A program made the position numbers and the translations under genes. Under the pieces are notes generated by a model. It did not search any database. It worked only from the letters and a program-made list of their open reading frames with translations, and was not told where the DNA came from. DNA of 64,000 bases, taken from positions 23,526 to 87,525 of the forward strand of contig JAILSC010000019.1 in NCBI GenBank assembly GCA_024697865.1. Direction: 5' to 3'. This document shows positions 4,821 to 53,670 of this stretch, piece by piece (the first letter of the stretch is position 1; each line of letters opens with the position of its first letter). Origin of the DNA: Candidatus Saccharimonadota bacterium. GTDB lineage: Bacteria > Patescibacteriota > Saccharimonadia > Saccharimonadales > Saccharimonadaceae.

Positions 4821-5537
4821 ATGGAAGACCAAATTATTCTCATCGACAAACCCGCAAATATCTCGTCTTTTGGTGTCGTGGCCAAAGTCCGAGGGCATTT
4901 GAAAGCTCAATTTAGACACAAAATCAAAGTTGGCCACACTGGTACTTTGGACCCCTTTGCGACCGGACTTCTAATTCTTCTCACTGGCAAAAACACCAAA
5001 AAATCTTCCGATTTTTTAAAGCTCGATAAAGTCTATGAAGCCACCTTAAAGCTAGGGTTCGTCTCCTCTACCGGTGACCCCGAGGGGGAGATTCAAGAAT
5101 ATTCAGTTTCGGGGCCACGTCCCTCGCGCCCGTCTTCACGGAGCTCAGGCGCTCCCTCTCGGCAGCAGCCTCCGAAATCCCCGAAACTAAACACTCTTGA
5201 ATCCACCTTAGCATCCTTTGTCGGTAAGATAGAACAACGCCCGCCCAAGTTTTCAGCCATCAAAATCGGCGGCCAACGCGCTTATAAACTAGCCCGCCAA
5301 GGCCAAGATTTTGAAATCCCCACCCGCGAAGTCGAGATCTACTCTCTCGAAATTCTAAACTACAATTACCCAGAACTCACTATCCGTTGTCACGTTTCTA
5401 GTGGCACTTACATCCGTACTTTAGCTGAAGACATCGGTAAAAAACTCGGCACTGGTGCCTACCTCACCGCCCTTCGCCGCACTAAAATCGCCGACTACTC
5501 CGTAGACGACGCCCTTAAATTGGCAGACTTCTCTTAA
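4821..5537 (+). CDS. truB: tRNA pseudouridine(55) synthase TruB carrying an in-frame palindromic insert
   Basis: LIDKP, KVGHTGTLDPFATGLL, PPKFSAIKIGGQRAYKLAR, SSGTYIRTLAEDIG. Confidence 0.96.
   Translation: MEDQIILIDKPANISSFGVVAKVRGHLKAQFRHKIKVGHTGTLDPFATGLLILLTGKNTKKSSDFLKLDKVYEATLKLGFVSSTGDPEGEIQEYSVSGPRPSRPSSRSSGAPSRQQPPKSPKLNTLESTLASFVGKIEQRPPKFSAIKIGGQRAYKLARQGQDFEIPTREVEIYSLEILNYNYPELTIRCHVSSGTYIRTLAEDIGKKLGTGAYLTALRRTKIADYSVDDALKLADFS
5090..5203. repeat. In-frame palindromic element (core family 1) in truB
   Basis: 25-bp inverted arms (5090-5114/5179-5203, 3 mismatches) around a 64-bp GC-rich core homologous to the recX and polA cores. Confidence 0.85.
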
Positions 5538-5603
5538 AGCCGCTCTTGTTTTTTGTTGCCATTATGTTAAAATGAAACCATACGATAATTAAGGATTTCT
5601 ATT

Positions 5604-7205
5604 ATGGTCATACATGAATCCAATATTAAATCATTATCTATAATTTTCGGTGCATTTCTTATCGCTACTCTCCTCTCAGGCACTATTTCTCTAAACAACA
5701 ATGCTAGTGCCGATACTAATGAGGTAGATACAGTCAACGTAGACATCTTAGCCGCCTGTACTATGGCTAGAACGGATAGTACTGGCGGTAATTATAGTGC
5801 TTCTCTCATTCCAGGGCAATCTGTAGAACTTGGGCCTACTAGTGTTAAGACTATCTGTAATGACAATAATGGGTATGCCATCTATGCTATCGGCTATTCT
5901 GGCAATGCCTATACTGGTGCTACTCATACTGATCTGATTTCGGCTACTAATACTAGTTACAATATTCACACTAATACTCCTAGTGCCGCTGGTAGTAGTT
6001 CTTATTGGGCGATGAAACTAGCTAGTGTAGCTTCTGGCAATTATACTCCTACTATAGAAAATAGCTACAGTAGCTATAATGTAATACCTAATACTTATAC
6101 CAAAGTAGTTAGCCTAAACAAAGCTACTGATGCTGGTGCTGGTGCTACTGGCTCTAACTTCAATGCTACTTATGAGATTAAGGCTGCCAGTGATCAGGTG
6201 GCTGATTCTTATACTGGGAAAGTGAAGTATGTGTTAGTCCATCCTAACAGTTTTGCTCCTGGTACTTACTCCATCGCCTATAATGCCAATGGTGGTAGTG
6301 GGACGATGACGGGAGAATCTGGCATCAGTAACATGGCCGAGCATACACTAATTACCAATGCTTTTGCTCCACCTTCTGGCTACGGATTCGCTGGCTGGTG
6401 TACCATCCAAGACACTTCGCAAACTCCCCAAACTACCTGTTCTGGTGAGACCTACACCGATAGAGGAACTGTAGAACCAGGTACTATAGCTGCTAACAGT
6501 ACGCTAAATCTTTATGCCATCTGGGAAGTAGACCTCAGAACCTACATGCAAGATTTCACTTTAGCTCAATGTCAAGCCCAAGCCGCTGATGCTCCACTTA
6601 TCGTTTATGATCGTCGCGATAAATCAGACTACACCGTTCGCTACATCAACGGTGCTTGTTGGATGACTCAAAACCTCAGGATCACTGGTACCATTTCTGC
6701 TACTAACTCTAACTTTTCTAGTCCAGCTTCCATTAATACGGCCGCTGGTGGAGATTTAAGAGGTAGCAGCTCTACCTACACTGAACCTCAGTCTCATCTA
6801 GCAGATAGCACGGATGTTGAAGCTTCAACTAGCGCTCCCGAAGGCCCTTATACTATTACTCAATTAGGTGCTTGGTACAATTATTGTGCCACTTCAGCCG
6901 GGCAGTCTTGTAGTCAAACTATGCAAAGTGCCACTCAAGACATCTGTCCAGCTAATTGGCATTTACCTTCCGAAGCTCAATTTAACAGTATATCTAGTTA
7001 TGGGTCCAATCTTTCTGTTTTCCCAGGCGGATATTACAACAACGGCTCGATAACAGCAGTCGGAATCATTGGCTATTGGTGGTCCGCTACTGCACATTGG
7101 CGTAATGACCAATATTATTTATTTGCCCTCTCAAGTAGTGAGGTGGGGACTGGCTACTATGATAAATATGCGGGGCTCTTTATCAGATGCATGCGCGACG
7201 TATAA
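5604..7205 (+). CDS. Secreted/surface protein with an InlB-B-type (Listeria-Bacteroides) repeat and a C-terminal FISUMP (Fib_succ_major) domain
   Basis: Signal peptide; YSIAYNANGGSGTM...GYGFAGW...LNLYAIW repeat; D.RD..DY.VRYINGACWMTQNL, YNYCATSAG, DICPANWHLPS, GYWWSAT, FIRCMR. Confidence 0.8.
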   Translation: MVIHESNIKSLSIIFGAFLIATLLSGTISLNNNASADTNEVDTVNVDILAACTMARTDSTGGNYSASLIPGQSVELGPTSVKTICNDNNGYAIYAIGYSGNAYTGATHTDLISATNTSYNIHTNTPSAAGSSSYWAMKLASVASGNYTPTIENSYSSYNVIPNTYTKVVSLNKATDAGAGATGSNFNATYEIKAASDQVADSYTGKVKYVLVHPNSFAPGTYSIAYNANGGSGTMTGESGISNMAEHTLITNAFAPPSGYGFAGWCTIQDTSQTPQTTCSGETYTDRGTVEPGTIAANSTLNLYAIWEVDLRTYMQDFTLAQCQAQAADAPLIVYDRRDKSDYTVRYINGACWMTQNLRITGTISATNSNFSSPASINTAAGGDLRGSSSTYTEPQSHLADSTDVEASTSAPEGPYTITQLGAWYNYCATSAGQSCSQTMQSATQDICPANWHLPSEAQFNSISSYGSNLSVFPGGYYNNGSITAVGIIGYWWSATAHWRNDQYYLFALSSSEVGTGYYDKYAGLFIRCMRDV

Positions 7206-7229
7206 CGTATAGTGTGTTATAATTAACTT

Positions 7230-7835
7230 ATGCTAACCTACAACTCCAAGCTAATTGGTACGCCAATTCTTAGCGTTCAAGCTGGTGGTGCTATCGCTAG
7301 CATTGTTGCTCCCGTAGTTAATCCTGATAATCTTAAAATTCTCGCCTTCAAACTCCAAGGCCCCATCGTTAACGCCGCGAACAATATCCTAGACGTTAAA
7401 TCCGTTCGCGAATATTCTCCTCTTGGCTTAGTGATCGACGATAACGACGAGCTCATCGGACCTGAAGACGTCGTCAAAATCAAAGAGGTCTTAGATCTTA
7501 ATTTCGACCTTATCGGTCTCAAAGTTGAAACCAAAAAAGGCTCTAAACTCGGCAAAATCATTGATTTCTCCCTCACTTCTGAAGATTTCACCATCCAGCA
7601 AATCATCGTCAAGCGTCCCACCATTAAAAGTTTCATGGATCCAGAGCTTACCATTCATCGTCGTGAAATTGTCGAGGTCACGGATTACAAAGTTATTGTC
7701 AAAGACGAAGAGAAGGTAATCAAGGCTCGCGCCGCCAAAGAAGATTTCGTGCCCAACTTCGTTAATCCTTTTCGAACTCACGAACCCGGCTTTGCGCCAG
7801 CTGATACGAAAACCCCTGCCGACAAAGATAACTAA
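7230..7835 (+). CDS. PRC-barrel domain protein (two barrels)
   Basis: LIGTPILS...G.I, LIGLKVETKKGSKLGKIIDF pattern. Confidence 0.7.
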   Translation: MLTYNSKLIGTPILSVQAGGAIASIVAPVVNPDNLKILAFKLQGPIVNAANNILDVKSVREYSPLGLVIDDNDELIGPEDVVKIKEVLDLNFDLIGLKVETKKGSKLGKIIDFSLTSEDFTIQQIIVKRPTIKSFMDPELTIHRREIVEVTDYKVIVKDEEKVIKARAAKEDFVPNFVNPFRTHEPGFAPADTKTPADKDN

Positions 7836-8451
7836 TCAACTTCTCGTCATCATATTTGGCTCGCTTTTTGGCAATCATTTTGTCAATTTCTTCTTCGTCA
7901 TTTCGCCCACTTAGCACTTCGTCAATTATCTCCTTGACCACTCCCTTTTTTACTAGCTCCATTCTTAAACGTTTTTGCGAAATCCCTTTTTTTACGAATC
8001 GATTTTCCACATAATATTCCGCGAACTTCCAATCATCCACATAGCCCTTGGTTTTCAATTTTCTAATTATTTCTTCCGAAAAATCAAAGGAGTCTGCTGA
8101 GGATTTTGTGGACCCAACCGGGTCCACAGGAAGTGACTGAGCCCCGTAAAGACGGGCGCGAAGGAACGTATCCGCAGAAGACTTCTTGATTTTTTTGCGA
8201 AACAAATATTCTTTAACTTCTCGCTCGCTCCGCGGCCGCACCAACACCCACTCTAACGTTCTCTGATATAGCTTACCGAATTCCGAGGCTTTCTTGCACT
8301 CTATTAATTTCTCCTCTGTCAGCGTTTGCCCAATTTTTAACTTCAAATCCACTACCTGCGTCACGTCCAGGGAAAAGGCAAACTTGCCACTTACGAACAC
8401 ATTCACTCGATTTGGGTTTTTGACACCCTGTTTTAGGTCTGTAATTTCCAT
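7762..8451 (-). CDS. recX: Regulatory protein RecX carrying an in-frame palindromic insert
   Basis: RPRSEREVKEYL, GYVDD..FAE.YV, S.KRLRMELVKKGV, YL.RQGFSY; immediately downstream of recA. Confidence 0.92.
   Translation of the reverse strand: MEITDLKQGVKNPNRVNVFVSGKFAFSLDVTQVVDLKLKIGQTLTEEKLIECKKASEFGKLYQRTLEWVLVRPRSEREVKEYLFRKKIKKSSADTFLRARLYGAQSLPVDPVGSTKSSADSFDFSEEIIRKLKTKGYVDDWKFAEYYVENRFVKKGISQKRLRMELVKKGVVKEIIDEVLSGRNDEEEIDKMIAKKRAKYDDEKLISYLCRQGFSYQLAQSRVREFEKD
8079..8194. repeat. In-frame palindromic element (core family 1) in recX
   Basis: Imperfect arms 8079-8104/8170-8194 around a 65-bp core (8105-8169) that is 53/65 identical to the polA core. Confidence 0.85.
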
Positions 8452-9476
8452 TATTCTGCTTCAGCCGCAGCACGTACTTTTTCTTCGATCTCCGCCATTA
8501 ATTCTGGCTTTTCTCGGAATAGCTTCTTTACAGCTTCTCTCCCTTGACCCAAAGTTTCTCCATTATATTTAATAAATGCACCCGCTTTCTCTAACACTCC
8601 GTAAGTCACACCCAAATCTAATACGTCTCCTGGTTTAGAGATCCCCTCGTTGTACATAATATCAAACTCTGCTAATCGGAAAGGTGCCGCAATTTTATTC
8701 TTCACTACCTTGATTTTTGTTCGGTTCCCCGCAATTTTATCACCGTCTTTGATTTGGCCAATTCGCCGAATATCTACCCGTACTGACGCGTAAAACTTCA
8801 AAGCATTACCGCCCGTCGTAGTTTCTGGATTGCCAAACATCACTCCAATTTTCATCCGAATTTGATTAATGAAAATCACCGTAGCCCGCGATTTAGAGAT
8901 AATCCCCGTCAATTTTCGCATCGCCTGACTCATCAATCTAGCTTGCAAGCCCATCTGAGCATCGCCCATATCTCCGTCAATTTCTGCCTGTGGTACCAAC
9001 GCCGCTACAGAATCCACCACGATTAAATCTACTGCGTTAGATCTCACTAACGTCTCACAAATCTCCAACGCTTGTTCTCCGTTATCTGGCTGTGAAATCA
9101 ATAGATTCGCCGTATCTACGCCAATTTTCTTCGCATAGGCTGGATCCAAAGCGTGCTCTGCGTCAATAAAAGCTGCCTGTCCACCCTGCTTTTGCATTTC
9201 AGCAATCGCGTGTAAAGCCAGAGTAGTCTTACCCGAAGATTCTGGCCCATAAATCTCAATAATTCTACCCTTAGGCCAGCCCCCGCCTAGTGCCAAATCT
9301 AGTGATAAAGACCCAGAGGGCAACAATTCTACATCCATCTTTGGAGTATCGCCCAACCTCATGATTGAACCATCACCGAATTGCTTAGTAATTTGCGCCA
9401 TTGCTAATTTTAAAGCTTCGTTCTTGCCATCTTCAGCCTTAGTATTTTTCTTTTCCACCGCTTCCTTTTTTCCCAT
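8451..9476 (-). CDS. recA: Recombinase A
   Basis: [44 protein letters not shown]. Confidence 0.99.
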
Positions 9477-9629
9477 AATAGTATTACCTTTCTTTCCCTC
9501 CCATTATATTATATTTTCTGACCCCTGTCTACCATGAACCAAAATTTATTACAACCCCCCACCTTTTGGCCCCTGTCGATAAAAACAACCGCTATTCTTT
9601 AAAATCACCAAATATGCTACAATGAAACT

Positions 9630-10640
9630 ATGAGAGTCAATGAAAATATTTTAATTTCTAGTCTTACTACCATGCGCCTTGGCGGCCCAGCTCGCTACGT
9701 GATTGAAGTAGAATCGCCTCGCGATGTAGCTGACGCCTATGGTTTTGCCCGCACTTTTAATCTACCAGTTTTCGTACTAGGCTACGGAGCCAATACCATT
9801 GGTCACGATGAAGGCTTCAATGGCATTATTATGATTAATCGAATGCGTGGCATTACCGAAGAACCTACCGCAAACGGCGTTCAACTTAAAATCATGGGGG
9901 GTGAATACTGGGATAACGTTGTTGAATATAGTACCAATAAAGGCCTCACTGGCATCGAAGCTCTCAGTAAAATTCCTGGTCTAGCTGGTGCTGCTCCTGT
10001 GCAAAATATTGGAGCTTACGGCCAAGAAATCGCCGACACGCTTGTTAGCATTGAAGTTTACGACACCGCTAGTGGCACCTTCCGTACCCTTACTCACGAT
10101 GAGCTTGGTTTTTCCTATCGTCACAGCATCCTCAATACCACCGAATACGGCCGTTATTTTGTAATTTCTATCACCATCAAACTCCAGCCCGGCCAAATGC
10201 AACGCCCCTTTTATAACTCCATCGAAACTTATATCGACGAAAACGGTCTCACGGATTTCAGTCCTGCCAGCATGCGCGCCATTGTCTCCGCTATTCGCGC
10301 CGACAAACTTCCTGATCCCACCGAAAAAGCCAGCGCTGGTTCTTTCTTCAAGAATATCTATATTTCCGAAGCCGAAGCCGAAATCGCCGGAGATAAAGGC
10401 TATCCCGTTCACCGTGGCAACGATGGTATTAAAATCAGTTCTGCCTGGCTAATTGAGCAATGTAAGCTTAAAGGCAAACTCCTCCACGGCTTCCGCGTCA
10501 ATGAAAAGGCCCCTCTAGTTCTCATCAATGAGTCCGCCACCAGTTATCAGGATTTAGATAAAGCCCGAGCCGAAATCATTAACAAAGTTTATGATAAATT
10601 CGGCTACTGGCTTGAACAAGAGCCTGTGGAGATTGGCTAA
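9630..10640 (+). CDS. murB: UDP-N-acetylenolpyruvoylglucosamine reductase
   Basis: IPG..GAAPVQNIGAYG.E, F.YR.S, SAGSFFKN, L..EP. Confidence 0.95.
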   Translation: MRVNENILISSLTTMRLGGPARYVIEVESPRDVADAYGFARTFNLPVFVLGYGANTIGHDEGFNGIIMINRMRGITEEPTANGVQLKIMGGEYWDNVVEYSTNKGLTGIEALSKIPGLAGAAPVQNIGAYGQEIADTLVSIEVYDTASGTFRTLTHDELGFSYRHSILNTTEYGRYFVISITIKLQPGQMQRPFYNSIETYIDENGLTDFSPASMRAIVSAIRADKLPDPTEKASAGSFFKNIYISEAEAEIAGDKGYPVHRGNDGIKISSAWLIEQCKLKGKLLHGFRVNEKAPLVLINESATSYQDLDKARAEIINKVYDKFGYWLEQEPVEIG

Positions 10641-11425
10641 TGAAAATTCTAAACGGTTCCGAACTAGCTGGCTTTATTAAAGAGCGTCAGGCCCACGTGG
10701 TTCGCAGCTTAAATCCTAGGCCTAAACTTCTGATCATTCGCGACAACGATAATCCTGTAATCATGAAATATGTCAATCTTAAAATCAAATACGGTGAAGA
10801 CATCGGTGTCGCCGTAGAAGATTTTTGCGCTGACAGTTCAGCTGCAATCGCCACCAAAATTCAATCTGCCAATCAAGATCCCGCCATTAGTGGTATTATC
10901 ATCCAACTACCTCTCACCGATAAATCGCAAACCGACGAGCTCTGCAATCTCATCGCTCCCGAAAAAGATGTCGACGGTCTCGGCGCAGAAGCTAAATTTG
11001 ACTCCGCCACCGCCACTGCCATTAATTGGCTGCTTACTGGCTACGATATTAACCTGCAAAACGCTAAAATCGCTCTCGTCGGGCGCGGTAAGCTCGTCGG
11101 CGCACCATTATACAAAATGTTCACGAACTCCGGCTACGACATCGAACTCTTCCACCGTGGTTCAGACTTGACAAAGCTTAAACAATATGATGTAATTATT
11201 ACAGCTACTGGTGTACCTGGCTTAATTTCTAGCGATATGATTAGTCCTGGTGCCGTTATCGTCGACGCCGGTACCGCCAGCGAAGACGGAGTCTTAAAGG
11301 GCGATGTCGCTCCCGAAATTCGTGATCGTCAAGATCTCACCGCTATCACCCCAGTAAAGGGCGGTGTCGGGCCACTTACCATCACCTGCCTCTATGATCA
11401 CGTCATTCGTGCTGCTCAAAAATAA
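10640..11425 (+). CDS. folD: Bifunctional methylenetetrahydrofolate dehydrogenase/cyclohydrolase
   Basis: GIIIQLPL, KDVDGL, VGRGKLVG.P, GAVIVDAG, TPVKGGVGPLTI. Confidence 0.93.
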   Translation: MKILNGSELAGFIKERQAHVVRSLNPRPKLLIIRDNDNPVIMKYVNLKIKYGEDIGVAVEDFCADSSAAIATKIQSANQDPAISGIIIQLPLTDKSQTDELCNLIAPEKDVDGLGAEAKFDSATATAINWLLTGYDINLQNAKIALVGRGKLVGAPLYKMFTNSGYDIELFHRGSDLTKLKQYDVIITATGVPGLISSDMISPGAVIVDAGTASEDGVLKGDVAPEIRDRQDLTAITPVKGGVGPLTITCLYDHVIRAAQK

Positions 11426-11434
11426 TTTCTCAAC

Positions 11435-11470
11435 AAAAAACGAACCAATGCGTGCGCTGGTTCGTTTTTT
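11435..11470. terminator. Bidirectional terminator hairpin after folD
   Basis: AAAAAACGAACCA...TGGTTCGTTTTTT. Confidence 0.75.
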
Positions 11471-11511
11471 ATGTGAAGCGGCCCCCAACCCTACTTAAAC
11501 TCAGCTAACTC

Positions 11512-11539
11512 CGAACTGGGAGAATTAACTCCCAGTTCG
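11512..11539. terminator. Hairpin downstream of the DUF11 gene
   Basis: CGAACTGGGAG-aattaa-CTCCCAGTTCG. Confidence 0.6.
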
Positions 11540-11551
11540 AAACCTTAAAGT

Positions 11552-12805: not shown

Positions 12806-12916
12806 AATAATCCTTTCATTAAAAAATGATAATAAATTACTTCTGTTTGCTAGCCGAATTGTTAATTTTCGTCTGTACAAACAGCCAAATCGTCTCAAAT
12901 TTCAAACTTGGATGAG

Positions 12917-12938
12917 CCCGGCGGCAAAAGCCGCCGGG
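12917..12938. terminator. GC-rich hairpin downstream of the 566-aa gene
   Basis: CCCGGCGGC-aaaa-GCCGCCGGG. Confidence 0.6.
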
Positions 12939-12995
12939 ACATTCTGGACTAATGTGCTAGGCTCCCACCAGCCTCATCCTTTGCTATCTATCGAG

Positions 12996-14978: not shown

Positions 14979-15029
14979 AACGTACTTGTAGTTCCCTTGA
15001 TATGCGGAGGACCCGGTATAGAGAAGCTG

Positions 15030-15851: not shown

Positions 15852-15954
15852 AGCGTTCTCCTTTCCTAGAGGTCTAATCTCGCTAGTGTATGTTAAACTA
15901 CATAACCTGATTATAGCATACTTAGCACAAATTGTCAATTCCTATAACATAATC

Positions 15955-16049
15955 CAACAAAAATGGTGCGAGTGGAGGGAGTCGCACCGCAGGTCCGACT
16001 CCCGAACCGAAAGTCTATGCAACAAAAATGGTGCGAGTGGAGGGAGTCG
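15955..16049. repeat. 30-bp direct repeat of the tRNA-Gly 3' end plus trailer, separated by a 35-bp insert (core family 3)
   Basis: CAACAAAAATGGTGCGAGTGGAGGGAGTCG at 15955-15984 and 16020-16049. Confidence 0.9.
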
Positions 16050-16103
16050 AACCCTCATCCCAAGTTTGGAAAACTTGTATACTAACCGCTGTACTACACT
16101 CGC
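16029..16103 (-). tRNA. tRNA-Gly(TCC)
   Basis: Cloverleaf; anticodon arm CAAGT-TTTCCAA-ACTTG; encoded CCA. Confidence 0.93.
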
Positions 16104-16115: not shown

Positions 16116-16233
16116 TGGGGTGGGATAGCGGGATCGAACCGCCGTTTGCCCCTTGGGACGCTTCGGCGGTTCCAGCCGCAATACGCCACGCTGAAACCAT
16201 TGTGTGGGGTGGGATAGCGGGATCGAACCGCCG
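16116..16233. repeat. 29-bp direct repeat of the tRNA-His 3' end separated by a 60-bp insert (core family 2)
   Basis: TGGGGTGGGATAGCGGGATCGAACCGCCG at 16116-16144 and 16205-16233. Confidence 0.9.
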
Positions 16234-31649: not shown

Positions 31650-31726
31650 GGGGATGTAGCTCAGCTGGTTAGAGCATGCGTCTTATACACGCAGGGTCCT
31701 AGGTTCGAGTCCTAGCATCCCTACCA
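31650..31726 (+). tRNA. tRNA with TAT anticodon (nominally Ile-UAU) on a Val-like body
   Basis: Cloverleaf; anticodon arm TGCGT-CTTATAC-ACGCA; CCA. Confidence 0.88.
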
Positions 31727-36386: not shown

Positions 36387-36415
36387 GTATCATATATTAT
36401 AACACGGAGTAATCA

Positions 36416-36499
36416 GAATTTCGTAAATGTGCCCTAAGGGACATAAAGACTTGGCCAGAGCGGCCTGGAGCGTGCCCGAAGGGCACGCTTGCGAAATTC
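36416..36499. repeat. Intergenic multi-hairpin palindromic element (core family 4)
   Basis: Outer arms GAATTTCGTAA/TTGCGAAATTC; 36458-36483 matches 1672-1697 at 23/26. Confidence 0.75.
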
Positions 36500-36502
36500 T
36501 AA

Positions 36503-37252
36503 TTACTCTTCCGGCTTTCTTAATTTATAATAAATCGACGGCGCAAATCTAATTCCTGCTAATGCCTTCTGTGCCTTGTCTTCCATTTTTACTAAATTCT
36601 GTGTACCGAATATCTTTTTTAGACCTCTACTGCGGAAATTCGACACCGATAATACCTTTTCTTGCTTAAATCCAACTTTGTCAAAAATCTCTTCTACATA
36701 TTTTGGATGATAATTGTAAAATCCATCCTTTGATATTTCTTTATAGTTAGCTACTTTACGATCAAACGGATTTACCTTGCTTCGCCCAGTCACATATCGC
36801 GCAATTTTTGGCAAAGTCCGTTTGTTTGCAACCTCAATTACTGCTACGCCACCTGGTTTCAAAACTCTATATAATTCAGCGATGGCCTTATCTAAATGTT
36901 TCAAATGATGAGTCACTCGTATCATCATCAATCCATCTAATTCATTATCCTTAAATGGTAACTTATAGATATCTCCGGCTTTAGTTTCGATTTTATCACC
37001 GTAAATTTCTTTTGCCTGTTTCAGCTCAGACTTCGAATAATCAAAAATATATACTTTTCGAGCTCGCTTCAAATATTCACTAGCTAGTCTGCCATAGCCC
37101 CCACCAATATCCGCAAATTTTTCCATTCTTTTCGGCAACAATTTTCGTATTGCCATTCGGTCTGCCTGATCTTCATACTCCCGATCTGCCTTTTCCCAGA
37201 ATTCGGTTTTGTAGTCATAGCCGTTATAATCTGATACTATTTTTTCACTCAT
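36503..37252 (-). CDS. Class I SAM-dependent methyltransferase
   Basis: FADIGGGYGR, GDIYKLPFKD, L.RVLKPGG. Confidence 0.9.
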   Translation of the reverse strand: MSEKIVSDYNGYDYKTEFWEKADREYEDQADRMAIRKLLPKRMEKFADIGGGYGRLASEYLKRARKVYIFDYSKSELKQAKEIYGDKIETKAGDIYKLPFKDNELDGLMMIRVTHHLKHLDKAIAELYRVLKPGGVAVIEVANKRTLPKIARYVTGRSKVNPFDRKVANYKEISKDGFYNYHPKYVEEIFDKVGFKQEKVLSVSNFRSRGLKKIFGTQNLVKMEDKAQKALAGIRFAPSIYYKLRKPEE

Positions 37253-43312: not shown

Positions 43313-43479
43313 TTTTTCGGGCACCTCCTCCGCCCACCAGTTATGTTTATGACCTATTTATATCCATTTTACCACAAAAAACACAATCATAAACATAAAA
43401 AATGGCGAATAACAGGATATTCATCCTAGTTCTTCTCTTCAGATTACCAAATCCAAAGCAAGCTTTGGATTTACTAACC

Positions 43480-43576
43480 TGGCGGAAAGGACAGGATTCG
43501 CACCGAAGGTCCGAATCCCCAACTAAAAAAGTCTACTGGAGACGACGGATTAACTTGGCGGAAAGGACAGGATTCG
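43480..43576. repeat. 21-bp direct repeat of the tRNA-Ser 3' end separated by a 55-bp insert (core family 3)
   Basis: TGGCGGAAAGGACAGGATTCG at 43480-43500 and 43556-43576. Confidence 0.9.
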
Positions 43577-43641
43577 AACCTGCGGACGTTTCCGTCTCTG
43601 GTTTTCAAGACCAGTGCCTTCAACCACTCGGCCACCTTTCC
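43556..43641 (-). tRNA. tRNA-Ser(TGA)
   Basis: Cloverleaf with long variable arm; CTGGT-CTTGAAA-ACCAG; G73; CCA. Confidence 0.95.
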
Positions 43642-43687
43642 ATTTTCTATTATACCATAATTCCCTAAAATATGTTATAATATCTCT

Positions 43688-43792: not shown

Positions 43793-43794
43793 AC

Positions 43795-45039: not shown

Positions 45040-45056
45040 AAGCTTATTATATCACA

Positions 45057-46416: not shown

Positions 46417-46470
46417 TTCTATCTCCTTTTTTCCATTATACCTCAAAAATATCCCCTCTCGGGGATATTT

Positions 46471-46689
46471 TTACCTAAGTCCTAGCTTGATTCGCTCGGT
46501 CTTCTCGGCTTTGCGTTTCTCGCGAATAATTGCCTTCAATCTACGTTCACGTTTTGAAATAGGTTTAGAAAATCGCATCTGTGATTTCTTCAAAGGCATC
46601 ATTCCGCTTTGCAAAACCTTTCGGTTAAAGCGTCGAATGATATTCTCATTCGCTTCCCCTTGATCTTTTCTTGTAACTTTTATAGCCAT
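46471..46689 (-). CDS. rpsU: 30S ribosomal protein S21
   Basis: E..ENIIRRFNRKV..SG......F.KP.SKRERR. Confidence 0.85.
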   Translation of the reverse strand: MAIKVTRKDQGEANENIIRRFNRKVLQSGMMPLKKSQMRFSKPISKRERRLKAIIREKRKAEKTERIKLGLR

Positions 46690-46735
46690 ATTCTCCACAT
46701 TATATCACACCTTGGCGTTTTCCGCAAGATGTTAA

Positions 46736-46812
46736 AACAAAAATGGCGGAACCGTTTGCCCCTTGGGACGCTCCGGTGGAGCCGTTTTTGTGCAACAAAA
46801 ATGGCGGAACCG
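46736..46812. repeat. 19-bp direct repeat of the tRNA-Asp 3' end plus trailer, separated by a 39-bp insert (core family 2)
   Basis: AACAAAAATGGCGGAACCG at 46736-46754 and 46794-46812. Confidence 0.88.
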
Positions 46813-46878
46813 ACGAGACTCGAACTCGCGACCTCTGCCGTGACAGGGCAGCGCTCTAACCAACTGAGCTACGATTCC
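46802..46878 (-). tRNA. tRNA-Asp(GTC)
   Basis: Cloverleaf; CTGCC-CTGTCAC-GGCAG; CCA. Confidence 0.95.
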
Positions 46879-46928
46879 AGCACTTATATATTATATATCA
46901 TTTACCAAAATAAATCAACTATCAAAGA

Positions 46929-48743
46929 TTACATTCCCGGAATCTTAAACGCCCCTGGATCCATGGCCGGCTGATCTTGAACTACTGTCTGCGCATTTTC
47001 AGGCCCAGATGTATTTTCTACTACTGGACTCTCGACTGGAGCTGAAACCACATTAACCTCTGGCGCAGCTTCCGTCACCGGTACATTCATATCAATTGGC
47101 GGCGCCGGCGGTGGTGGTAAAACTTCGTCTCCGGGCATTGGCATATAATTTATTTGCGGCACTCCATTAATCTCCGGATTAGCCTCTACCGCTGGCGCGC
47201 TTACTGCTGCCGGGTTCTCAACTGGAGTTGGAGCGGTATTGCTCACGCCAGCCAAAGCATCTTCTAGCATTTGACCATATTTTTCAGTTTCACCTCCATT
47301 TGATAAATTATTCAGCATATCAGCAGGGGGTTGAATCACTTTTTCTGGTTTGTCGCTTATAAACTCACTGCCAGCAGTCTCAGTCACCGGAGCTTCAGCT
47401 AAAGCTTCAACCGGAACGGCTGGATTCTCTGCTGGAGTCACTACGCCTTCACCCATTACATTTGCATCTTGTGCCACCTCTTGTTTGACTTCTTCTGCTA
47501 CTTTCGGTAAGGATTCCGACTCTGTCGCACTATCTATTTTCAATGGTTCATTTTTTGCTTCTGGCGCAGTTTCTGCCCCTGCAGTAGCCAAACTCGCCTC
47601 TGCCGCCTTCAAGTCATCTAATAAAGAGGGGGCTTGTTCTTCTTTAGCGTTATCGCTCTCGGGCTGCGTTTCTTTTTTCGCTTCTGCTTCTGTCCCCTCA
47701 GCTACGGGCACTGCACCTTCTACCTCATCTTTCCCATCATGCTGAATATCTAATTTCGTAGGATCGCCATTCGTTTTAGGCTCGGTCTCTATCGTACCAA
47801 AACTACCTATATTCATCATTTCGTTTTCAACATCAGGCGTAATATTCTTCGACACTAATTGTTGATTCGCCCCCGAGTCCATTAATTTAGAAGCAATCTG
47901 CATTGTTTCAGATGTAGTCCCTGCACTTGAAAAACGGTTTGTTGCCGCCACAATACCCGTTAAGAAAGCCGTAGCCTCTTCTTTTTCAATTTTTACTTTA
48001 CTGTTCACGCTATACAACAATCTCGCTATCATCTCTGATACTGAGCTGGCCGTTTTATCGCTCCATTCAATTTCGCCTAACCTTCCTGGATTTCCTGTCG
48101 TAATATTAACGATCACTGCATCATGCATAATTCGTCCATGTTCTCTGAGCGCCGCATCCAAATCCACACCGTTCGCCACATCTAATGCTAATACTAAATC
48201 TACATTATAATCTCCGTACGAAAATTCCAAATCTTCTTCGGTAATCTTAGCTTTATATGGCGTAATATAAATCTTTACATAATCGCCATCTAATTTATAT
48301 CGCAGATGGTCTGCCTTATCTTTATTTAAAGCAATCACAAAATCCTGCAAAGTATCCGCCGAATTTTCAAAAGTTTCCTCTGGTTTCAAAAATTCCAAAG
48401 CATTCGGAGTTTGGCCTGAATAGATCGCTGTTGTTCGCTTACCCAATTTATCCAAATATAAAGAAAGACCAATTGCCGCCGCCATTTCGTCTACCGATGG
48501 GTCGCTAGATAAAGCCACTAATACATTTTGTGATTCGCTAATCTTTCGAGCTACTTCTGCTGGAATTTCAGTACTTACTGCCGGGGTTGTTCCTGCGTCC
48601 GTTGCCGGCACTACCGGTTCTACTACCGCACTATCAGCCACTGGAGCAGTGTCCGTCGTCGAAGTATTTGGCGCTGCCACCGTAGGCAAAGTCGGTGTTC
48701 CAACGTTCATTGGATCAGTGGTTGTGTTTGTTTCTTCAGGCAT
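46929..48743 (-). CDS. DHH-phosphoesterase-like fold (degenerate motifs) with long acidic Pro/Ala-rich extensions
   Basis: VLVALSSDPSVD..AAAIGL, SSVSEMI, ATAFLTGIVAATNRF; start MPEETN at 48743. Confidence 0.7.
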   Translation of the reverse strand: MPEETNTTTDPMNVGTPTLPTVAAPNTSTTDTAPVADSAVVEPVVPATDAGTTPAVSTEIPAEVARKISESQNVLVALSSDPSVDEMAAAIGLSLYLDKLGKRTTAIYSGQTPNALEFLKPEETFENSADTLQDFVIALNKDKADHLRYKLDGDYVKIYITPYKAKITEEDLEFSYGDYNVDLVLALDVANGVDLDAALREHGRIMHDAVIVNITTGNPGRLGEIEWSDKTASSVSEMIARLLYSVNSKVKIEKEEATAFLTGIVAATNRFSSAGTTSETMQIASKLMDSGANQQLVSKNITPDVENEMMNIGSFGTIETEPKTNGDPTKLDIQHDGKDEVEGAVPVAEGTEAEAKKETQPESDNAKEEQAPSLLDDLKAAEASLATAGAETAPEAKNEPLKIDSATESESLPKVAEEVKQEVAQDANVMGEGVVTPAENPAVPVEALAEAPVTETAGSEFISDKPEKVIQPPADMLNNLSNGGETEKYGQMLEDALAGVSNTAPTPVENPAAVSAPAVEANPEINGVPQINYMPMPGDEVLPPPPAPPIDMNVPVTEAAPEVNVVSAPVESPVVENTSGPENAQTVVQDQPAMDPGAFKIPGM

Positions 48744-48890
48744 GTTCTTCCTTTCTAACCAAATCTTACCATAAGCCTTTAGAAAAAGCAAGCGTCCTTT
48801 TCAGATTATTCCAGATTCCCCCTTTACTTTTTCAGAGAAAAGCGTTATAATAGTAATAAGTTATTAATTTTTAATTCAAATAGGAAGAAA

Positions 48891-49241
48891 ATGCCGATTA
48901 TTAAATCTGCCAAAAAGGCTGCTCGTCAAGCGGAAAAGCGCACCGAGCACAATAAAGGAATCAAGAAAGATATCAAGGCCGCTCTTAAGGCTTTCAAGGC
49001 TAAGCCTTCTGCTGAGACTTTAGCCAAGGCTCAATCTGAATACGATAAGGCCGTTAAGAAAAATCTACTTAAGAAAAATACTGCTTCTCGTCGCAAAGCT
49101 AAATTGCATCAGATGGCTAAGGCTGCCGGCGTCAAATTAATAGCTGCTAAGAAACCAGCCGCTAAAGCTACTACCAAGAAGTCTACAACGAAGACAACCG
49201 CAGCAAAAACGCAGAAATCAACGTCCAAGGCTGCAAAGTAG
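48891..49241 (+). CDS. rpsT: 30S ribosomal protein S20 with a Lys/Thr/Ala-rich tail
   Basis: MPIIKSAKK..RQ..KR..HN, DKAVKK....KNTASRRKA.L. Confidence 0.95.
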   Translation: MPIIKSAKKAARQAEKRTEHNKGIKKDIKAALKAFKAKPSAETLAKAQSEYDKAVKKNLLKKNTASRRKAKLHQMAKAAGVKLIAAKKPAAKATTKKSTTKTTAAKTQKSTSKAAK

Positions 49242-49791
49242 ATTCTTGCTTCAATTGCATATCGAGTTTAGAGAGTTCTTTTAAGGCTCTCTTTTCTTTT
49301 GTTCCTGCCCGCACTGCATAGTCTCGCAAAGCTTGACTCACCATTAAACCCAAAAACATCATCGGATCTTGTTTCGATTCTATTTCCTGTAGCATTTTTA
49401 CCGCCTTCTTACCGTCAATTTTTGCTGTTTTATAAACCTCGAATACCAACCCTGCATTTCGATCTCTCGGCATTGTAAATTCTCGAAATTCTACTCTGTC
49501 TTTCAATGATTTATATACCGCCGACCTTTTGTCTATTTTGCTTTCCAAAATCACCACCTTATGCGGCGTATCTAAATATTTTTCAATCTCACTGTAAACT
49601 TCTTTATTGTCAGCTAAATCTCGAATCAAAATCGTTCGTTCTTCTGCAAACAGTGAACTCCCCTTTAACAAACTCGGCAAATCCGTCGTCTTTAGATTGA
49701 CTCCCTCCACTATCTCATATTTATCGCCTAAAAATTTTTTAATCTCGGCCCCAGCTTGCATTCGGTTCTCGCCATAAAATATCTTAATCAT
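49183..49791 (-). CDS. holA: DNA polymerase III delta-subunit-like protein (short)
   Basis: MIKIFYGEN, SLFAEERTILIR, KIDKRS...K.L, L..LD..LK; shorter than a typical HolA. Confidence 0.6.
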   Translation of the reverse strand: MIKIFYGENRMQAGAEIKKFLGDKYEIVEGVNLKTTDLPSLLKGSSLFAEERTILIRDLADNKEVYSEIEKYLDTPHKVVILESKIDKRSAVYKSLKDRVEFREFTMPRDRNAGLVFEVYKTAKIDGKKAVKMLQEIESKQDPMMFLGLMVSQALRDYAVRAGTKEKRALKELSKLDMQLKQESTLQPWTLISAFLLRLSSL

Positions 49792-50632
49792 GTTCCTCCT
49801 TCTGACATTTTGGACAAAAATGCGTTCCTCGCCCGCCCACCTTTATCTTTACAATTTCCGTACCGCATCTTTCACACGGCTCTCCATCTCGTTGATATAC
49901 CTTCGCAAATAAATCCAAATAATTTCCTCGCGTGCCATCAGCTTTTACATAATTTCGCATCGTTGACCCACCTAACTCAATCGACTTATCCATTACCCGG
50001 CTAGCCGCTTCAAGTAACGTTGCTGCTTCTTTTTTGCTCAAATCTCCCGCCTTTCTGGCCGGATGAATTTTGGCCTGGTAGAGCGCTTCATCCGCATAAA
50101 TATTCCCTAGTCCCGATATCACTGTCTGGTCCAAGATCACTGATTTAACCGCAGAATTCTTTCGTCGTTGCAATTTCTGATATAATTCTTCACTCGTCAT
50201 CTTCCATGGTTCTTTGGCTAATTTTCGGATAAAGGCATCTTCCTCCACTTCAGCGGTCGGCAGCACTTTGATAAAGCCAAACTTCCGCTGATCGTTAAAA
50301 TAAAGGGTCCCATTTTCAAATTCTAAAATTACTCGCGTCTGTTTATTTGGTAACTTTGCCACAAAGTTCTCATTCGGATGTCCCGCCGCATAGCGTTCAG
50401 CGCCATCAAATATTAATTGTCCCGTCATCCTTAAATGCACCATCAAAGACCAGCCATTATCTAGATCAATCACTAAGGCTTTGCCAAATCTACGGATATC
50501 ACATACTGTTCCACACACCGGCTCGCCAATAAAAGACTTCTCGCACAATACTTTCACTTGCTTTATTTTCGCGTTCAAAATAAAGTCTTTTAATCCTCTC
50601 CTCACTGTCTCTACTTCCGGCAATTCTGGCAT
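49784..50632 (-). CDS. mutM: Formamidopyrimidine-DNA glycosylase
   Basis: MPELPEVETV, HLRMTG, D.RKFG, GLGNIYADE, CxxC...GRGTHFCPKCQ. Confidence 0.97.
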   Translation of the reverse strand: MPELPEVETVRRGLKDFILNAKIKQVKVLCEKSFIGEPVCGTVCDIRRFGKALVIDLDNGWSLMVHLRMTGQLIFDGAERYAAGHPNENFVAKLPNKQTRVILEFENGTLYFNDQRKFGFIKVLPTAEVEEDAFIRKLAKEPWKMTSEELYQKLQRRKNSAVKSVILDQTVISGLGNIYADEALYQAKIHPARKAGDLSKKEAATLLEAASRVMDKSIELGGSTMRNYVKADGTRGNYLDLFAKVYQRDGEPCERCGTEIVKIKVGGRGTHFCPKCQKEEHD

Positions 50633-50671
50633 ATCTCTATTTTATCATACGTCAATGAGTTTTCCACAAGT

Positions 50672-50727
50672 AATCCATATTTAGTGTTAAAAACCTACTT
50701 GACGCCACCATATGTAGCGCCTATAAT
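50672..50727 (+). promoter_or_regulatory. Sigma70 promoter (TTGACG-17-TATAAT) overlapped by two NrdR-box-like sites
   Basis: AATCCATATTTAGTG (50672-50686) and CCACCATATGTAGCG (50705-50719) against the consensus acaCwAtATaTwGtg; 33 bp apart. Confidence 0.7.
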
Positions 50728-50781
50728 AGAATTCAGGTAATATTTATAAATCAATAAACTAAACAGAAAGGTCTACGAACC

Positions 50782-51222
50782 ATGAAAAACATCATCTACC
50801 GCAATCCCTCAGACGCCGAAAATTTCGACATCAAGAGATTCGTTAAATCGCTCGGAAGGTACGCTAAAATTACTGAAAAGGAAGCTAAAGAAGCTCTTGT
50901 AGACTTTGATCATTACGATATTTTACATGTTTCTTGTTTAGTAGAAGTTGGCACCAAGCTCATCGCTAAAAAAGCTGGCCAAGAAGCTGCTGAAGATTAT
51001 TTCAATCAACACGTTGAATATTTCGACGAAGGCAAGTTCGAACGCTTGCGCCGTATCACTGGCTACCTGGTTGGGACTCTGGACCGCTGGAACGACGCTA
51101 AAAAGGCCGAAGAACACGCTCGCGTCAAACACTCCGTTAACTCTTCTATTAACGACGCTGAACGCCTTGCCGCACTAGAAACTCAGGCTATGTCCCACAA
51201 CATCGCCTACGCTAGAGCTTAA
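50782..51222 (+). CDS. Small free-standing NrdD C-terminal (glycyl radical) domain protein
   Basis: FERLRRITGYLVG..DRWND.K..E...RVKH, the NrdD C-terminal motif, in only 146 aa. Confidence 0.8.
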   Translation: MKNIIYRNPSDAENFDIKRFVKSLGRYAKITEKEAKEALVDFDHYDILHVSCLVEVGTKLIAKKAGQEAAEDYFNQHVEYFDEGKFERLRRITGYLVGTLDRWNDAKKAEEHARVKHSVNSSINDAERLAALETQAMSHNIAYARA

Positions 51223-51235
51223 CAGCTAAGTATTC

Positions 51236-51266
51236 AAAGAACCAGACTCATAATCTGGTTCTTTTT
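51236..51266. terminator. Bidirectional terminator
   Basis: AAAGAACCAGA-ctcataa-TCTGGTTCTTT. Confidence 0.75.
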
Positions 51267-51270
51267 AATT

Positions 51271-53670
51271 CTATAATTCTCCCCAATTATTACCGGTTGT
51301 AACCTCTACGGCAAGTTTTATTTCTAATTCTGGTGCCACCGACTCCATTTCTTTCTGCAAAATCTGAGCCACCCGTTCAGCCAATTTAGTTTCGCACTCT
51401 ACAATTAAAGAGTCGTGTACTTGCATTACTAATTCCGCTCCAGCAGGCAACACTGCGGCCACTTTAATCATCGCCCGTTTCATTAGATCCGCCTCCGTTC
51501 CCTGAATTGGCATATTTTGTGCCGCTCTCTCCGCTGCTTGGCGAATCACAAAATTAGTCGACTTTACGTCCGGTGTTGGCCGTCTTCGGCCATAGTAAGT
51601 CTCCACGTACCCATTTTCTCGCGCTTGTTTTAAGGTTGCGTCCAAATACTTCTTGATTGGCGCTCTTAGCTCAAAATAATTATCAATAAATTCTTTAGCT
51701 TGCCCAATTGGCATCTTTGCTGCATCCGCTAAGCCTTTTACGCTCATGCCATAAAGTATGCCAAAATTAATCACTTTTGCTGCTCGACGCTGCGCTTTCG
51801 TTACTTTGTTCAGTGATACATCAAACGCTTCCGCCGCAGTCTTAGTGTGAATGTCTATTCCTTTATTGAAATCCTCTATTAATGCTTGGTCACCAGCTAG
51901 TACTGCCGCTAGCCTCAATTCGAACTGCGAATAATCCGCCGAAACCAATACTTTCCCAGCAGGCGCTACAAAGCCCGTCCGAATTCGTTTTCCTTCTTCC
52001 GTCCTCACCGGAATATTTTGCAAATTCGGGTCCTTTGATGACAACCGTCCCGTTGCCGTTACATTCTGCGTAAAGGTCGTATGAATTCGCCCCTTCTCGT
52101 CTGCCAATTCCGGCATCGGCGTGATGTAAGTCGATAATAATTTCGCAGCTTCTCGGTATTCCATTAATTTCGGGATCACTAGATGCAAATCTTTTAGTTT
52201 TTGAAGTTCCTTCGCTCCGGTGGAATATCCCCTAGTAGTTTTTTTGATTCCCTTTACTGGCAACCGAAGATCCACAAATAACACTTCCGATAACTGCACC
52301 GGTGAATTTACGTTAAATTCTTTACCCGCTAAGTCCCATATTTCTCGCTCTAATCGCCCCACCTCTTCCGTATATTCTTTCTTCAAATTCTCAAAATACT
52401 TTCGGTCAATCAACATCCCCTTCTTTTCCATCTTGTAGAGTACCGGTATCAGCGGCAAATCAAACTCCTTATAGACTTGATAAAGTCTCGGCATTTTTTC
52501 AAACTCTGCTTGTTGTCTTGTATAAGCCTCTGTTGTATCTGTCGCCTCAAACAATGTCGCCTGTTCCCGCTTTAGAGGATTCAATAAAAACCCTGCCTGG
52601 CCCACATCCCAAAACTTTTCACCTGCTAAAATCTTCTCCGCCACCTTCTCGTTATGATGCATTAATGATTTTACGTCATAATCGATAATTATAGCTGAGC
52701 TCAATTGCTTCTGATCCGAAAATTTGTGAGCCCTGCTGGGCTCACGAGAAGTGACTGAGCCCTGTGAAGACAGGCGCGAAGGAACGTGTCTCGGAGCAGG
52801 AGCTTCGAGCTCACTAAAATTAAATTTTCTAATTAATGAATTAAACTCTAACTTCTTTAGCCCATTAACTACTTTTTCAGGATCAAATTCAAAATCGGGA
52901 ATCTCGGCTAGCTTCACCGGCGCATCAAACATAATCTGCGCCAACTGACGTGACATATATGCTGATTCTTTTCCCTTAATCAATTTTTTCTGCACCGAGC
53001 CTTTAATTTCATCAATATGCGCATAAATCTCATCCAAATTCCCATATTCGTTCAGTAGTTTTGCTGCCGTCTTTTCTCCCACTCCTGGTACTCCCGGAAT
53101 ATTGTCTGATGCGTCTCCCTTCAAGGCCTTGAGATCTAAAAATTGTGATTTCGAAATCCCATATTTTTCTTCTACTTCTTTTACGTCAATTTGTTCAATG
53201 TTAGAAAACCCTTTCAAGATCCGCCACATGTGAGTGTTATTATCTACGATCTGCAACATATCTAAATCCGACGAAATAATATAGGTCTCCCAACCCCCAG
53301 CCTCATCCGCTTGTCGGCTCAAAGTACCGATAATATCGTCTGCTTCAAATTTTGACACTTCTATAAAGGCCCAACCCAAATCATTAATTAATTCTTCAAG
53401 GAGCGGTATTTGCGCGTAAAAATCATCACCTGGCTTTACTCGGCCCGCCTTATAATCGGCAAAAATCTTTCTCCGACTCTCCGCCGAATCTCGTGAATCC
53501 CACGCTACCACTACTTTAGTTGGCGCCAACCGTTTTACAATCTCCATTGCAATCGCTGCAAAACCATACACACCTCCCGTTGGCGTACCATCAGACAAAC
53601 TCAAAGCCCCCATCGCATAATATCCTCGATAAAATACCGATTTGCCGTCAATCAGTACTAATCGCTTCAT
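51271..53670 (-). CDS. polA: DNA polymerase I (5'-3' exonuclease plus polymerase, shortened middle domain) carrying an in-frame palindromic insert
   Basis: LIDGKS..YR.YYA, EADDIIG, GDASDNIPGV.G.GEKTA, TGRLSS..PNLQNIP, SADYSQFELR, AKVINFG..YG, QVHDSL. Confidence 0.97.
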   Translation of the reverse strand: MKRLVLIDGKSVFYRGYYAMGALSLSDGTPTGGVYGFAAIAMEIVKRLAPTKVVVAWDSRDSAESRRKIFADYKAGRVKPGDDFYAQIPLLEELINDLGWAFIEVSKFEADDIIGTLSRQADEAGGWETYIISSDLDMLQIVDNNTHMWRILKGFSNIEQIDVKEVEEKYGISKSQFLDLKALKGDASDNIPGVPGVGEKTAAKLLNEYGNLDEIYAHIDEIKGSVQKKLIKGKESAYMSRQLAQIMFDAPVKLAEIPDFEFDPEKVVNGLKKLEFNSLIRKFNFSELEAPAPRHVPSRLSSQGSVTSREPSRAHKFSDQKQLSSAIIIDYDVKSLMHHNEKVAEKILAGEKFWDVGQAGFLLNPLKREQATLFEATDTTEAYTRQQAEFEKMPRLYQVYKEFDLPLIPVLYKMEKKGMLIDRKYFENLKKEYTEEVGRLEREIWDLAGKEFNVNSPVQLSEVLFVDLRLPVKGIKKTTRGYSTGAKELQKLKDLHLVIPKLMEYREAAKLLSTYITPMPELADEKGRIHTTFTQNVTATGRLSSKDPNLQNIPVRTEEGKRIRTGFVAPAGKVLVSADYSQFELRLAAVLAGDQALIEDFNKGIDIHTKTAAEAFDVSLNKVTKAQRRAAKVINFGILYGMSVKGLADAAKMPIGQAKEFIDNYFELRAPIKKYLDATLKQARENGYVETYYGRRRPTPDVKSTNFVIRQAAERAAQNMPIQGTEADLMKRAMIKVAAVLPAGAELVMQVHDSLIVECETKLAERVAQILQKEMESVAPELEIKLAVEVTTGNNWGEL
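52696..52813. repeat. In-frame palindromic element (core family 1) in polA
   Basis: Imperfect arms 52696-52721/52789-52813 around a 65-bp core (52723-52787). Confidence 0.85.

Follow-up and report, generated by a model that had tools for sequence, protein, structure and literature searches.

Introduction

Most documented cases of selfish DNA lying in frame in essential genes come from Rickettsia and from some mitochondria. Mitochondrial double-hairpin elements sometimes lie in frame in coding genes, in both orientations, and to our knowledge they have not been described with enclosing arms derived from the host. Elements of this type, also called GC clusters, were reportedly described from fungal and chytrid mtDNA by Paquin et al. 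in 2000 as short, dispersed sequences in an AT-richer genome. In this study we analyzed a 64-kb stretch of DNA from a Candidatus Saccharimonadota bacterium (contig JAILSC010000019.1, positions 23,526 to 87,525; hereafter the window), in which related GC-rich cores of about 65 nt occur in frame in the genes truB, recX and polA, each core being enclosed by an inverted repeat.

The palindromic elements of Rickettsia (RPEs; Ogata et al. 2000, 2002) are small palindromic repeats that lie in frame in unrelated housekeeping genes and are translated as extra surface segments (PMC10969869). They have a length of about 100-150 bp, family-conserved ends and one conserved peptide per family, and they are regarded as selfish DNA of a reduced-genome bacterium with no known transposase (PMC10969869). 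RPEs are reported to decay (PMC6649704). The coding palindromes in the mitochondria of Nematomorpha are perfect repeats of up to 284 bp, with no dispersed module conserved at their centre; both repeat arms are coding, the palindromes are gained and lost between species, and template switching or repeat conversion has been proposed to maintain them (PMC6649704).

Related cores in three housekeeping genes

The window contains exactly three copies of the core, and nhmmer finds no further one. Each core consists of two hairpins (HP1 and HP2) and is flanked by two arms. The positions of cores, arms and host genes are as follows, and the sequences match these coordinates.

4821..5537, plus strand: host gene truB (tRNA pseudouridine-55 synthase), 238 aa; insert at about residues 98-119; PDB TruB matches (E 1e-35) are split around the insert
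5090..5114: truB arm A, 25 nt, 88% complementary to 5179-5203; encodes the host residues EIQEYSVSG
5115..5178, minus strand (the reference strand is the minus strand): truB core; HP2 at about 5118-5152, HP1 at about 5156-5176; nhmmer E 1e-14; read as PRPSRPSSRSSGAPSRQQPPKS
5179..5203: truB arm A', reverse-complementary to arm A and read in another frame, giving (S)PKLNTLES
7762..8451, minus strand: host gene recX, 229 aa; insert between helical repeats 1 and 2, with PDB RecX matches on either side
8074..8104: recX arm 5' of the core (plus strand), pairs with 8170-8200
8105..8169, plus strand: recX core; HP1 8108-8127, HP2 8133-8167; antisense to recX; read as TFLRARLYGAQSLPVDPVGST
8170..8200: recX arm 3' of the core (plus strand), pairs with 8074-8104 in the fold
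51271..53670, minus strand: host gene polA (DNA polymerase I), 799 aa; insert in the linker after the 5'-nuclease domain, at about residue 291
52695..52722: polA arm 5' of the core (plus strand), pairs with 52788-52815
52723..52787, plus strand: polA core; HP1 52726-52745, HP2 52751-52785; antisense to polA; read as VPSRLSSQGSVTSREPSRAHK
52788..52815: polA arm 3' of the core (plus strand), pairs with 52695-52722

The three elements would contribute the insert peptides PRPSRPSSRSSGAPSR, TFLRARLYGAQSLPVD and VPSRLSSQGSVTSR. The GC content of the truB element is 68%, compared with about 44% for the window. The proteins nearest to the TruB of the window are named Candidatus Saccharibacteria at NCBI, and the locus occurs in gut metagenome runs of sheep, bovine and other origin.

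An initial annotation of this DNA had described the three cores as members of one family, and a check of the sequences confirmed this. The recX and polA cores are identical at 53 of 65 positions; the 12 differences consist of two compensatory pairs in HP1 and one in HP2, together with four loop positions and two junction positions. The truB core is present as the reverse complement and has the HP2 module in common with the other two. All three host open reading frames (ORFs) are uninterrupted, and the peptides and frames that had been quoted for them are right. Chance can be excluded as the origin of the cores because a 37-nt pattern with at most three mismatches was found twice in the window, where shuffled sequences gave an expectation of 0.00, and because the nhmmer E values for the three copies range from 1e-14 to 1e-20.

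Structure of the unit

The whole unit measures about 115-125 nt and is composed of the core and an enclosing inverted repeat of 22-30 bp, the sequence of which is specific to each copy. It folds into a three-way junction with a long outer stem and two hairpins (z-scores of -4 to -7.5). In HP1 the pairing is kept and the sequence is variable. HP2 is a conserved hairpin of roughly the form (A)AG(Y)GAC(Y)GAGCCCCGT-RAAG-ACGGGCGCGARGGAACGT, with the centre CCCGU-NNNG-ACGGG and fixed purine-purine positions. The covariation that had been noticed between the cores also stands in HP2 when relatives are included: across 11 copies from the window and related loci, both partners vary in 9 of the 15 pairs, a value that none of 500 shuffles reached, and registers slid against the true one showed far fewer double-sided changes.

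The arms have no sequence in common among the 11 copies, each pair being specific to its host site. They are of similar length in all copies and roughly 80-90% paired; those of recX, for example, form 27 Watson-Crick pairs and 2 G·U pairs over 35 aligned columns, which also include 4 other mismatches and 2 gaps. One further copy, on a metagenome contig, has 15 complementary flanking nucleotides. The pairing defects are strand-symmetric overall, with G·U and A·C occurring 12 and 8 times in the arms, 3 and 5 times in HP2, and 15 and 13 times in both together. Since G·U is not in excess over A·C, the pairing is symmetric in the manner of a DNA palindrome and does not look like that of a helix selected as RNA. 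The non-Watson-Crick cells of HP2 include 34 G·A and 0 C·T, one G·A being invariant, and the strand that reads TTTG...ACGT gave the better fold in all nine copies tested.

These features bear on the idea that the unit is a functional RNA, that is, a long-stemmed three-way junction in the host mRNA or in an antisense transcript which acts as a small RNA, signals processing or binds a protein. The fold z-scores, the covariation in HP2, the better folding of one strand and the conserved tandem G·A positions, which occur on this TTTG...ACGT strand only, are all consistent with such a role. However, the counts of G·U and A·C are unlike those of RNA-selected helices, the arms are copy-specific, and the orientation of the element relative to transcription flips between orthologs, as described below. 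The core has no promoter elements that could be recognized by eye, as distinct from a promoter scan. A search of Rfam gave no family at the gathering score over the window, and none around each copy even at E values up to 10. We consider a functional RNA quite unlikely. Hammerhead, twister, kink-turn, C/D box, group II domain V and sarcin-ricin loop were also compared with the unit by eye, and none of them fits.

Insertion into the host genes and origin of the arms

Comparison with orthologs confirmed that the segments are insertions. The truB genes that encode 216-217 aa, as well as the truB of locus L020 (L numbers denote fetched loci), are free of the insert, as are the recX genes of L019, L021 and L022; the sites are polymorphic for presence and absence of the element. 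In the truB orthologs of 216-217 aa about 22 residues are missing exactly at the insert. Measured from one conserved anchor motif to the other, this region spans 159 nt in five insert-bearing truB genes (window, L016, L019, L021 and L022) and 93 nt in L020, which has neither arms nor core. The net insert of 66 nt corresponds to the core alone, so the arms in truB occupy native coding positions. The residues EIQEY, which lie within arm A, are common in truB orthologs including the insert-free ones, and the residues of arm A' differ in the arm-less orthologs (L020, P0063, P0058 and P0073). Among the window, L019, L016 and L021 the truB arms vary, with changes on both sides. The insert-free recX genes are 84 nt shorter and arm-less, which corresponds to a net insert of about one core plus one arm.

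One truB gene, that of L013, has arms around an 8-nt loop which keeps the ACGCGG of the core end. Because the arms are present together with this remnant, we regard the site as a deletion relic. For recX and truB we rejected the view that the arms are landing pads present beforehand: empty sites are arm-less, and the sole site with arms only still holds a remnant of the core. From the comparison of these sequences we infer an ancestral host origin for one arm and an origin as its inverted copy for the other, which would have replaced host sequence in truB and been added to it in recX. An inverted-copy arm that replaces or adds to host sequence is the product expected of a replication template switch, and there is precedent for the creation of hairpins by template switching (PMC8794818).

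The segments are rich in Arg, Ser and Pro, a kind of sequence that is common in linkers, and on this ground they could be taken for ancestral protein sequence or for convergent low-complexity loops that are merely alike. This explanation is refuted by the orthologs that lack the segment, by the nhmmer E values given above and by the fact that one nucleotide module is used in at least four frames and orientations.

Four TruB orthologs (P0042, P0069, P0110 and P0047) have much longer inserts at the same site, with up to about 50 extra residues, some of them repeated, which points to insertions at that site that are nested or in tandem.

Orientation and history of the arm-core-arm block

The sites are also polymorphic for orientation. 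Cores of the opposite orientation occur at the same sites in truB of L016 and L021, in recX of L013 and in polA of L045 and L046, each with its own arms. The claim that the elements have the same orientation relative to the host gene is true for the three copies within the window, but it fails as a property of the element, the orientation being flipped in orthologs of all three genes. The bias in the window can be explained by open-frame content, with 8 of 9 frames open in the window orientation and 3 of 9 in the opposite one, and no RNA is needed to account for it.

The TruB protein of L016 is 84% identical to that of the window overall and 96% identical outside the insert. In polA, peptides of the type ATEPRNDGSE occur in several orthologs, and the cores of L045 and L046 are visibly different in sequence, a difference judged without quantification. 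A fourth host gene is lepA. The copy in the lepA of L020 is partly decayed (HP1 contains mismatches and HP2 has diverged), and the lepA of L022 has an unrecognizable remnant at the same linker.

Two of these host genes are called as two ORFs in some of the loci. In polA of L045 (9537-11936) and L046 (908-3368) the break lies downstream of the element-bearing linker, and a frameshift, a true split of the gene or an error of assembly could each account for it. In L021 (1451-3925) lepA is called as a GTPase part and a C-terminal part, with a gene of the histidine-phosphatase family between them.

The similarity of the truB elements does not follow that of the genes that carry them. Between the window and L022 the nucleotide identity is 0.47-0.83 outside the element and 0.87-0.97 across 5085-5204; between the window and L016 it is 0.83-1.0 outside and 0.20-0.60 across the element. 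A truB of 65% nucleotide identity has an arm-core-arm block that is about 90% identical, whereas a truB of 92% identity has a different, inverted core. The truB core is 87-90% identical to the cores of L019 and L022, compared with 65-73% for the remaining gene, and at third codon positions these three truB genes are 86-95% identical in the core and 30-48% identical in the rest of the gene. The proteins give the same picture, insert similarity being independent of host-protein identity: the insert is absent from some orthologs with 83-84% identity in the remaining sequence, and one TruB ortholog that is 74% identical outside the insert has 20 of 22 insert residues in common with the window. The proposal that conservation acts at the level of the nucleic acid and not of the peptide is borne out by these third positions and by the use of at least four reading frames and both orientations.

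Since the identity of the block is decoupled from that of the rest of the gene, the block has its own history. This history could reflect cassette-like exchange or re-insertion, selection at the nucleotide level, or both.

The main rival explanation is that the element is a domesticated or functional DNA motif. On this view the T-shaped nested palindrome would serve in DNA as a site of binding or processing, for instance in uptake, recombination, topology or replication, which selection keeps wherever the proteins allow it, and its orientation with respect to genes would be of no consequence. Nucleotide conservation far above that of synonymous sites would agree with this explanation, as would the GC-rich composition kept in a 44% GC genome, the tolerance of both orientations, the symmetric pairing that DNA would give and the uniform arm length. 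However, some copies are decaying, as in the lepA genes of L020 and L022, sites are empty in close relatives, the polA cores of L045 and L046 are visibly different in sequence, and the density is low, with 3 copies per 64 kb. In addition, we know of no protein that binds the nested palindrome. Together, these points make a functional DNA motif unlikely.

The module also turns up in dozens of flanks in rumen and gut metagenome contigs. In these the words of HP2 are 20-70 times deeper than unique flanks, and one metagenome run contained at least 35 contigs with different flanks around the module. No flip/flop was seen within one population; the two X1 contigs over the truB element have the same configuration. 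T-shaped terminal hairpins of the parvovirus type exist in flip and flop forms at the ends of linear single-stranded DNA genomes, where a Rep nickase resolves them. The likeness to the present unit is one of shape only (a long stem, two small hairpins at a three-way junction and two inverted configurations), whereas the structure studied here lies inside chromosomal genes and no Rep-like gene was seen.

Several wider searches gave no match that was accepted. A pattern for HP2 matched once in the GTDB species representatives and 11 times in JGI metagenome contigs; these matches were judged to be chance because all of them lie in genomes of 53-71% GC and lack the hairpin context. A looser pattern gave 22 matches in viral contigs, none of which was real by nhmmer. 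A search of the protein collection for host genes, using concatenated insert peptides in four frames, gave no match.

Reading frames and protein sites

All 11 copies in the fetched loci are free of stop codons and in frame, with the host ORF intact. The net insert, which is measurable only where an empty ortholog is available, is 66, 81 or 84 nt and in each case divisible by three. The insert sites of truB, recX and polA map to loops or linkers, as judged from PDB matches and, for TruB, from AlphaFold; this agrees with the earlier suggestion that protein loops tolerate the element. The AlphaFold model of TruB has a mean pLDDT of 85.6, and its sole stretch below 50, residues 98-117, is the insert. 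The alignment with Taq Pol I breaks off at residue 291 and is taken up again at 389, and the polA linker is variable in orthologs. The sites in RecX, Pol I and LepA are inter-domain linkers.

It had also been suggested that the element is a mini-intron. In this case the segment would be cut from the mRNA, or skipped by the ribosome, and the host proteins would be made without the insert. The arms do bring the flanks together, like exon-pairing helices, the elements sit in essential genes, and locus-level conservation of nucleotides would be expected if removal were required. Against this stand the open frames and the measured insert lengths in multiples of three, which are needless in a segment that is removed, as well as the occurrence of both orientations at the same sites and the fact that arm A of truB encodes conserved residues. 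Introns of group I and of group II and small self-cleaving ribozymes gave no match in Rfam at either of the thresholds named above. The bulge-helix-bulge motif of archaeal introns consists of two 3-nt bulges with a 4-bp helix between them at the exon-intron borders; the folds obtained here are continuous stems with 1-nt mismatches and do not have this geometry, and the copies are in frame and open. Contigs from four runs (library type not known) span the elements, and no joined form that skips an element was seen among them. The mini-intron is thus disfavoured, and removal or bypass of the segment is very improbable.

Other repeats and features of the window

The GC skew is negative in every 1-kb bin regardless of the gene strand (cumulative -13.9), which places the window inside one replichore. 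The three cores have no common orientation relative to the replichore.

A larger structured segment, GC-rich (68%) and in frame, lies at 63480-63620 in the minus-strand ORF 62745-63998, which encodes a multi-pass membrane protein. The segment, whose reading includes RSRPRPAGPFAFGNSRPKGRAPRAAGANSRAAALRNAAS, is bounded by complementary flanks of its own (GGTATAATGCTTCAGCGAAGC / GCGAGCGAAGCATTAACC); it looks like a further family of similar insert. Two intergenic long hairpins at 1608-1737 and 36407-36508 have arms of 33-34 nt and GC-rich centres, both with GAGCGTG(T/C)CCGAAGGG. This motif is similar to the 3' end of the core (GAGCGTGTC in L016 and L013), and the two hairpins may be intergenic relatives of the element. 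Rfam gave no match to either of them at the gathering score.

Several observations concern tRNA genes. Duplicated 3' parts of tRNA-Gly (15952-15988 and 16017-16053) and of tRNA-Ser (43475-43504 and 43551-43580) adjoin the intact genes and resemble the traces of elements that integrate into tRNA genes. Beside the tRNA-Gly copy, the region of 13-16 kb has a GC content of 52-54% and ORFs without Pfam matches. Between tRNA-Gly and tRNA-His lies a GC-rich 75-nt segment (16117-16191) with a T-arm-like GGGATCGAACCGC that was not called as a tRNA. The motif CCTTGGGACGCTTCGGCGG occurs at three places (16117-16191, 46761-46784 and 60875-60898) and partly also in the insert at 63.5 kb. A tRNA-Ile with the anticodon UAU, which is uncommon in bacteria, is located at 31650-31726.

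A probable selfish nested palindrome

Taken together, the data point with modest confidence to a selfish, non-autonomous DNA element in the form of a nested palindrome. It would reside in permissive loops, be translated through and undergo turnover or exchange independently of the host gene, with arms that probably arise through template switching or arm-to-arm conversion. Such an element would be dispersed in rumen and gut Saccharibacteria. It would persist only where the protein tolerates about 22-30 extra residues, as in inter-domain linkers and surface loops, and only in a stop-free frame and orientation, in which it would be transcribed and translated within the host protein. The arm-core-arm block would move or be exchanged apart from the host gene, and it could be replaced by a core of the opposite orientation or be lost, leaving the arms alone. 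Around the stable GC hairpins the arms may be generated, and their pairing maintained, by arm-to-arm conversion or by template switching during replication. Spread may occur by DNA uptake and recombination, by an enzyme that acts on hairpin DNA, or by both.

A number of points weigh against this explanation. A Pfam search of the ten window ORFs at 11.5-21.5 kb, which cover the GC-rich region of 13-16 kb, gave no transposase, HUH enzyme or integrase, and no mobility enzyme was found near any copy in the gene tables and precomputed Pfam labels of the fetched loci. The cores have neither target-site duplications nor conserved terminal repeats, so classical transposition is not demonstrated. The translation of the inserts by read-through would follow from the open frames and is itself a deduction. 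The strong conservation of the core and its GC-rich composition in a 44% GC genome could mean purifying selection for a function of the host or of the nucleic acid. The uniform arm length points to some definite mechanism or requirement more than to template switching that occurs sporadically. Finally, one strand is special: the conserved G·A positions, with 34 G·A and no C·T, fit a single-stranded DNA or an RNA ligand.

A more far-reaching proposal, which we make only tentatively and hold to be less than probable, is that the element represents an undescribed class of bacterial mobile DNA. Each time it inserts, a two-hairpin module of about 65 nt would build around itself, or require, an inverted copy of 22-30 bp of the host flank, giving a T-shaped nested palindrome with flip and flop forms; it would pass from one species to another as a cassette that occupies the same gene sites and be kept intact far longer than neutral DNA. 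If true, this would imply a dedicated enzyme for hairpin DNA or a peculiarity of replication or repair that is specific to Saccharibacteria.

Comparison with described elements

[quoted passage not shown] However, the arms of the 11 copies are unlike one another and do not constitute conserved terminal inverted repeats; the flanks are inverted, with no direct repeat visible at the core borders that could be a target-site duplication, and no transposase was found with Pfam in the ten window ORFs scanned or among the precomputed labels of the fetched loci. REP/REPIN sequences with RAYT, and palindromes derived from IS200/IS605, have no transposase of their own, are thought to move as single-stranded DNA and are mostly intergenic, and their palindrome is conserved between copies. 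They resemble the present element in being small hairpin repeats with one special strand. They differ in that the arms here are not conserved, and no RAYT/TnpA gene was seen near any copy in the 64 kb and the fetched loci.

The mitochondrial double-hairpin elements also consist of two adjacent GC-rich hairpins that are dispersed in an AT-richer genome and reach coding regions. This likeness is one of kind only and implies no common descent. They are organellar, and their sequences are unrelated. With the palindromes of Nematomorpha the element has in common that both arms are coding (EIQEYSVSG / PKLNTLES and similar), that the arms change jointly and that their pairing is symmetric; a copying event would account for the arms in our case. 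The differences are that the arms are 22-30 bp long, roughly 80-90% paired and always placed around the same core family.

The RPEs are matched in the insertion in frame into unrelated genes at permissive sites, here truB, recX, polA and lepA. In contrast to the RPEs, the conserved part is about 40-65 nt long and occurs in at least four frames and both orientations, without a single conserved peptide, and the outer inverted repeat is local host sequence that lies outside the family consensus. Some copies are far better conserved than synonymous sites of the host, whereas RPEs are reported to decay. We call the two unlike in sequence, a statement made without direct alignment to RPEs, and the host in the present case belongs to the Saccharibacteria. 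The combination of a dispersed conserved core, coding arms derived from the host, both orientations at the same sites and a decoupled history of the block looks new.

Significance

For the annotation of genomes the family matters in that its inserts can mislead the assignment of orthology, domains and structure, and in that short-read assemblies break at the repeat. Inserts of this kind would help to account for the unexplained extra loops in many proteins of Saccharibacteria. Two features go beyond the known cases, namely enclosing arms of host coding sequence and a history of the block that is separate from that of its host gene. Arms made by template switching would turn the element into a natural system in which to study how long coding hairpins are formed, and the involvement of an enzyme would mean a new mechanism of mobility. 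An abundant family in Saccharibacteria, which are part of the Candidate Phyla Radiation, would mean that passengers of this type are carried by the very small genomes of epibionts as well.

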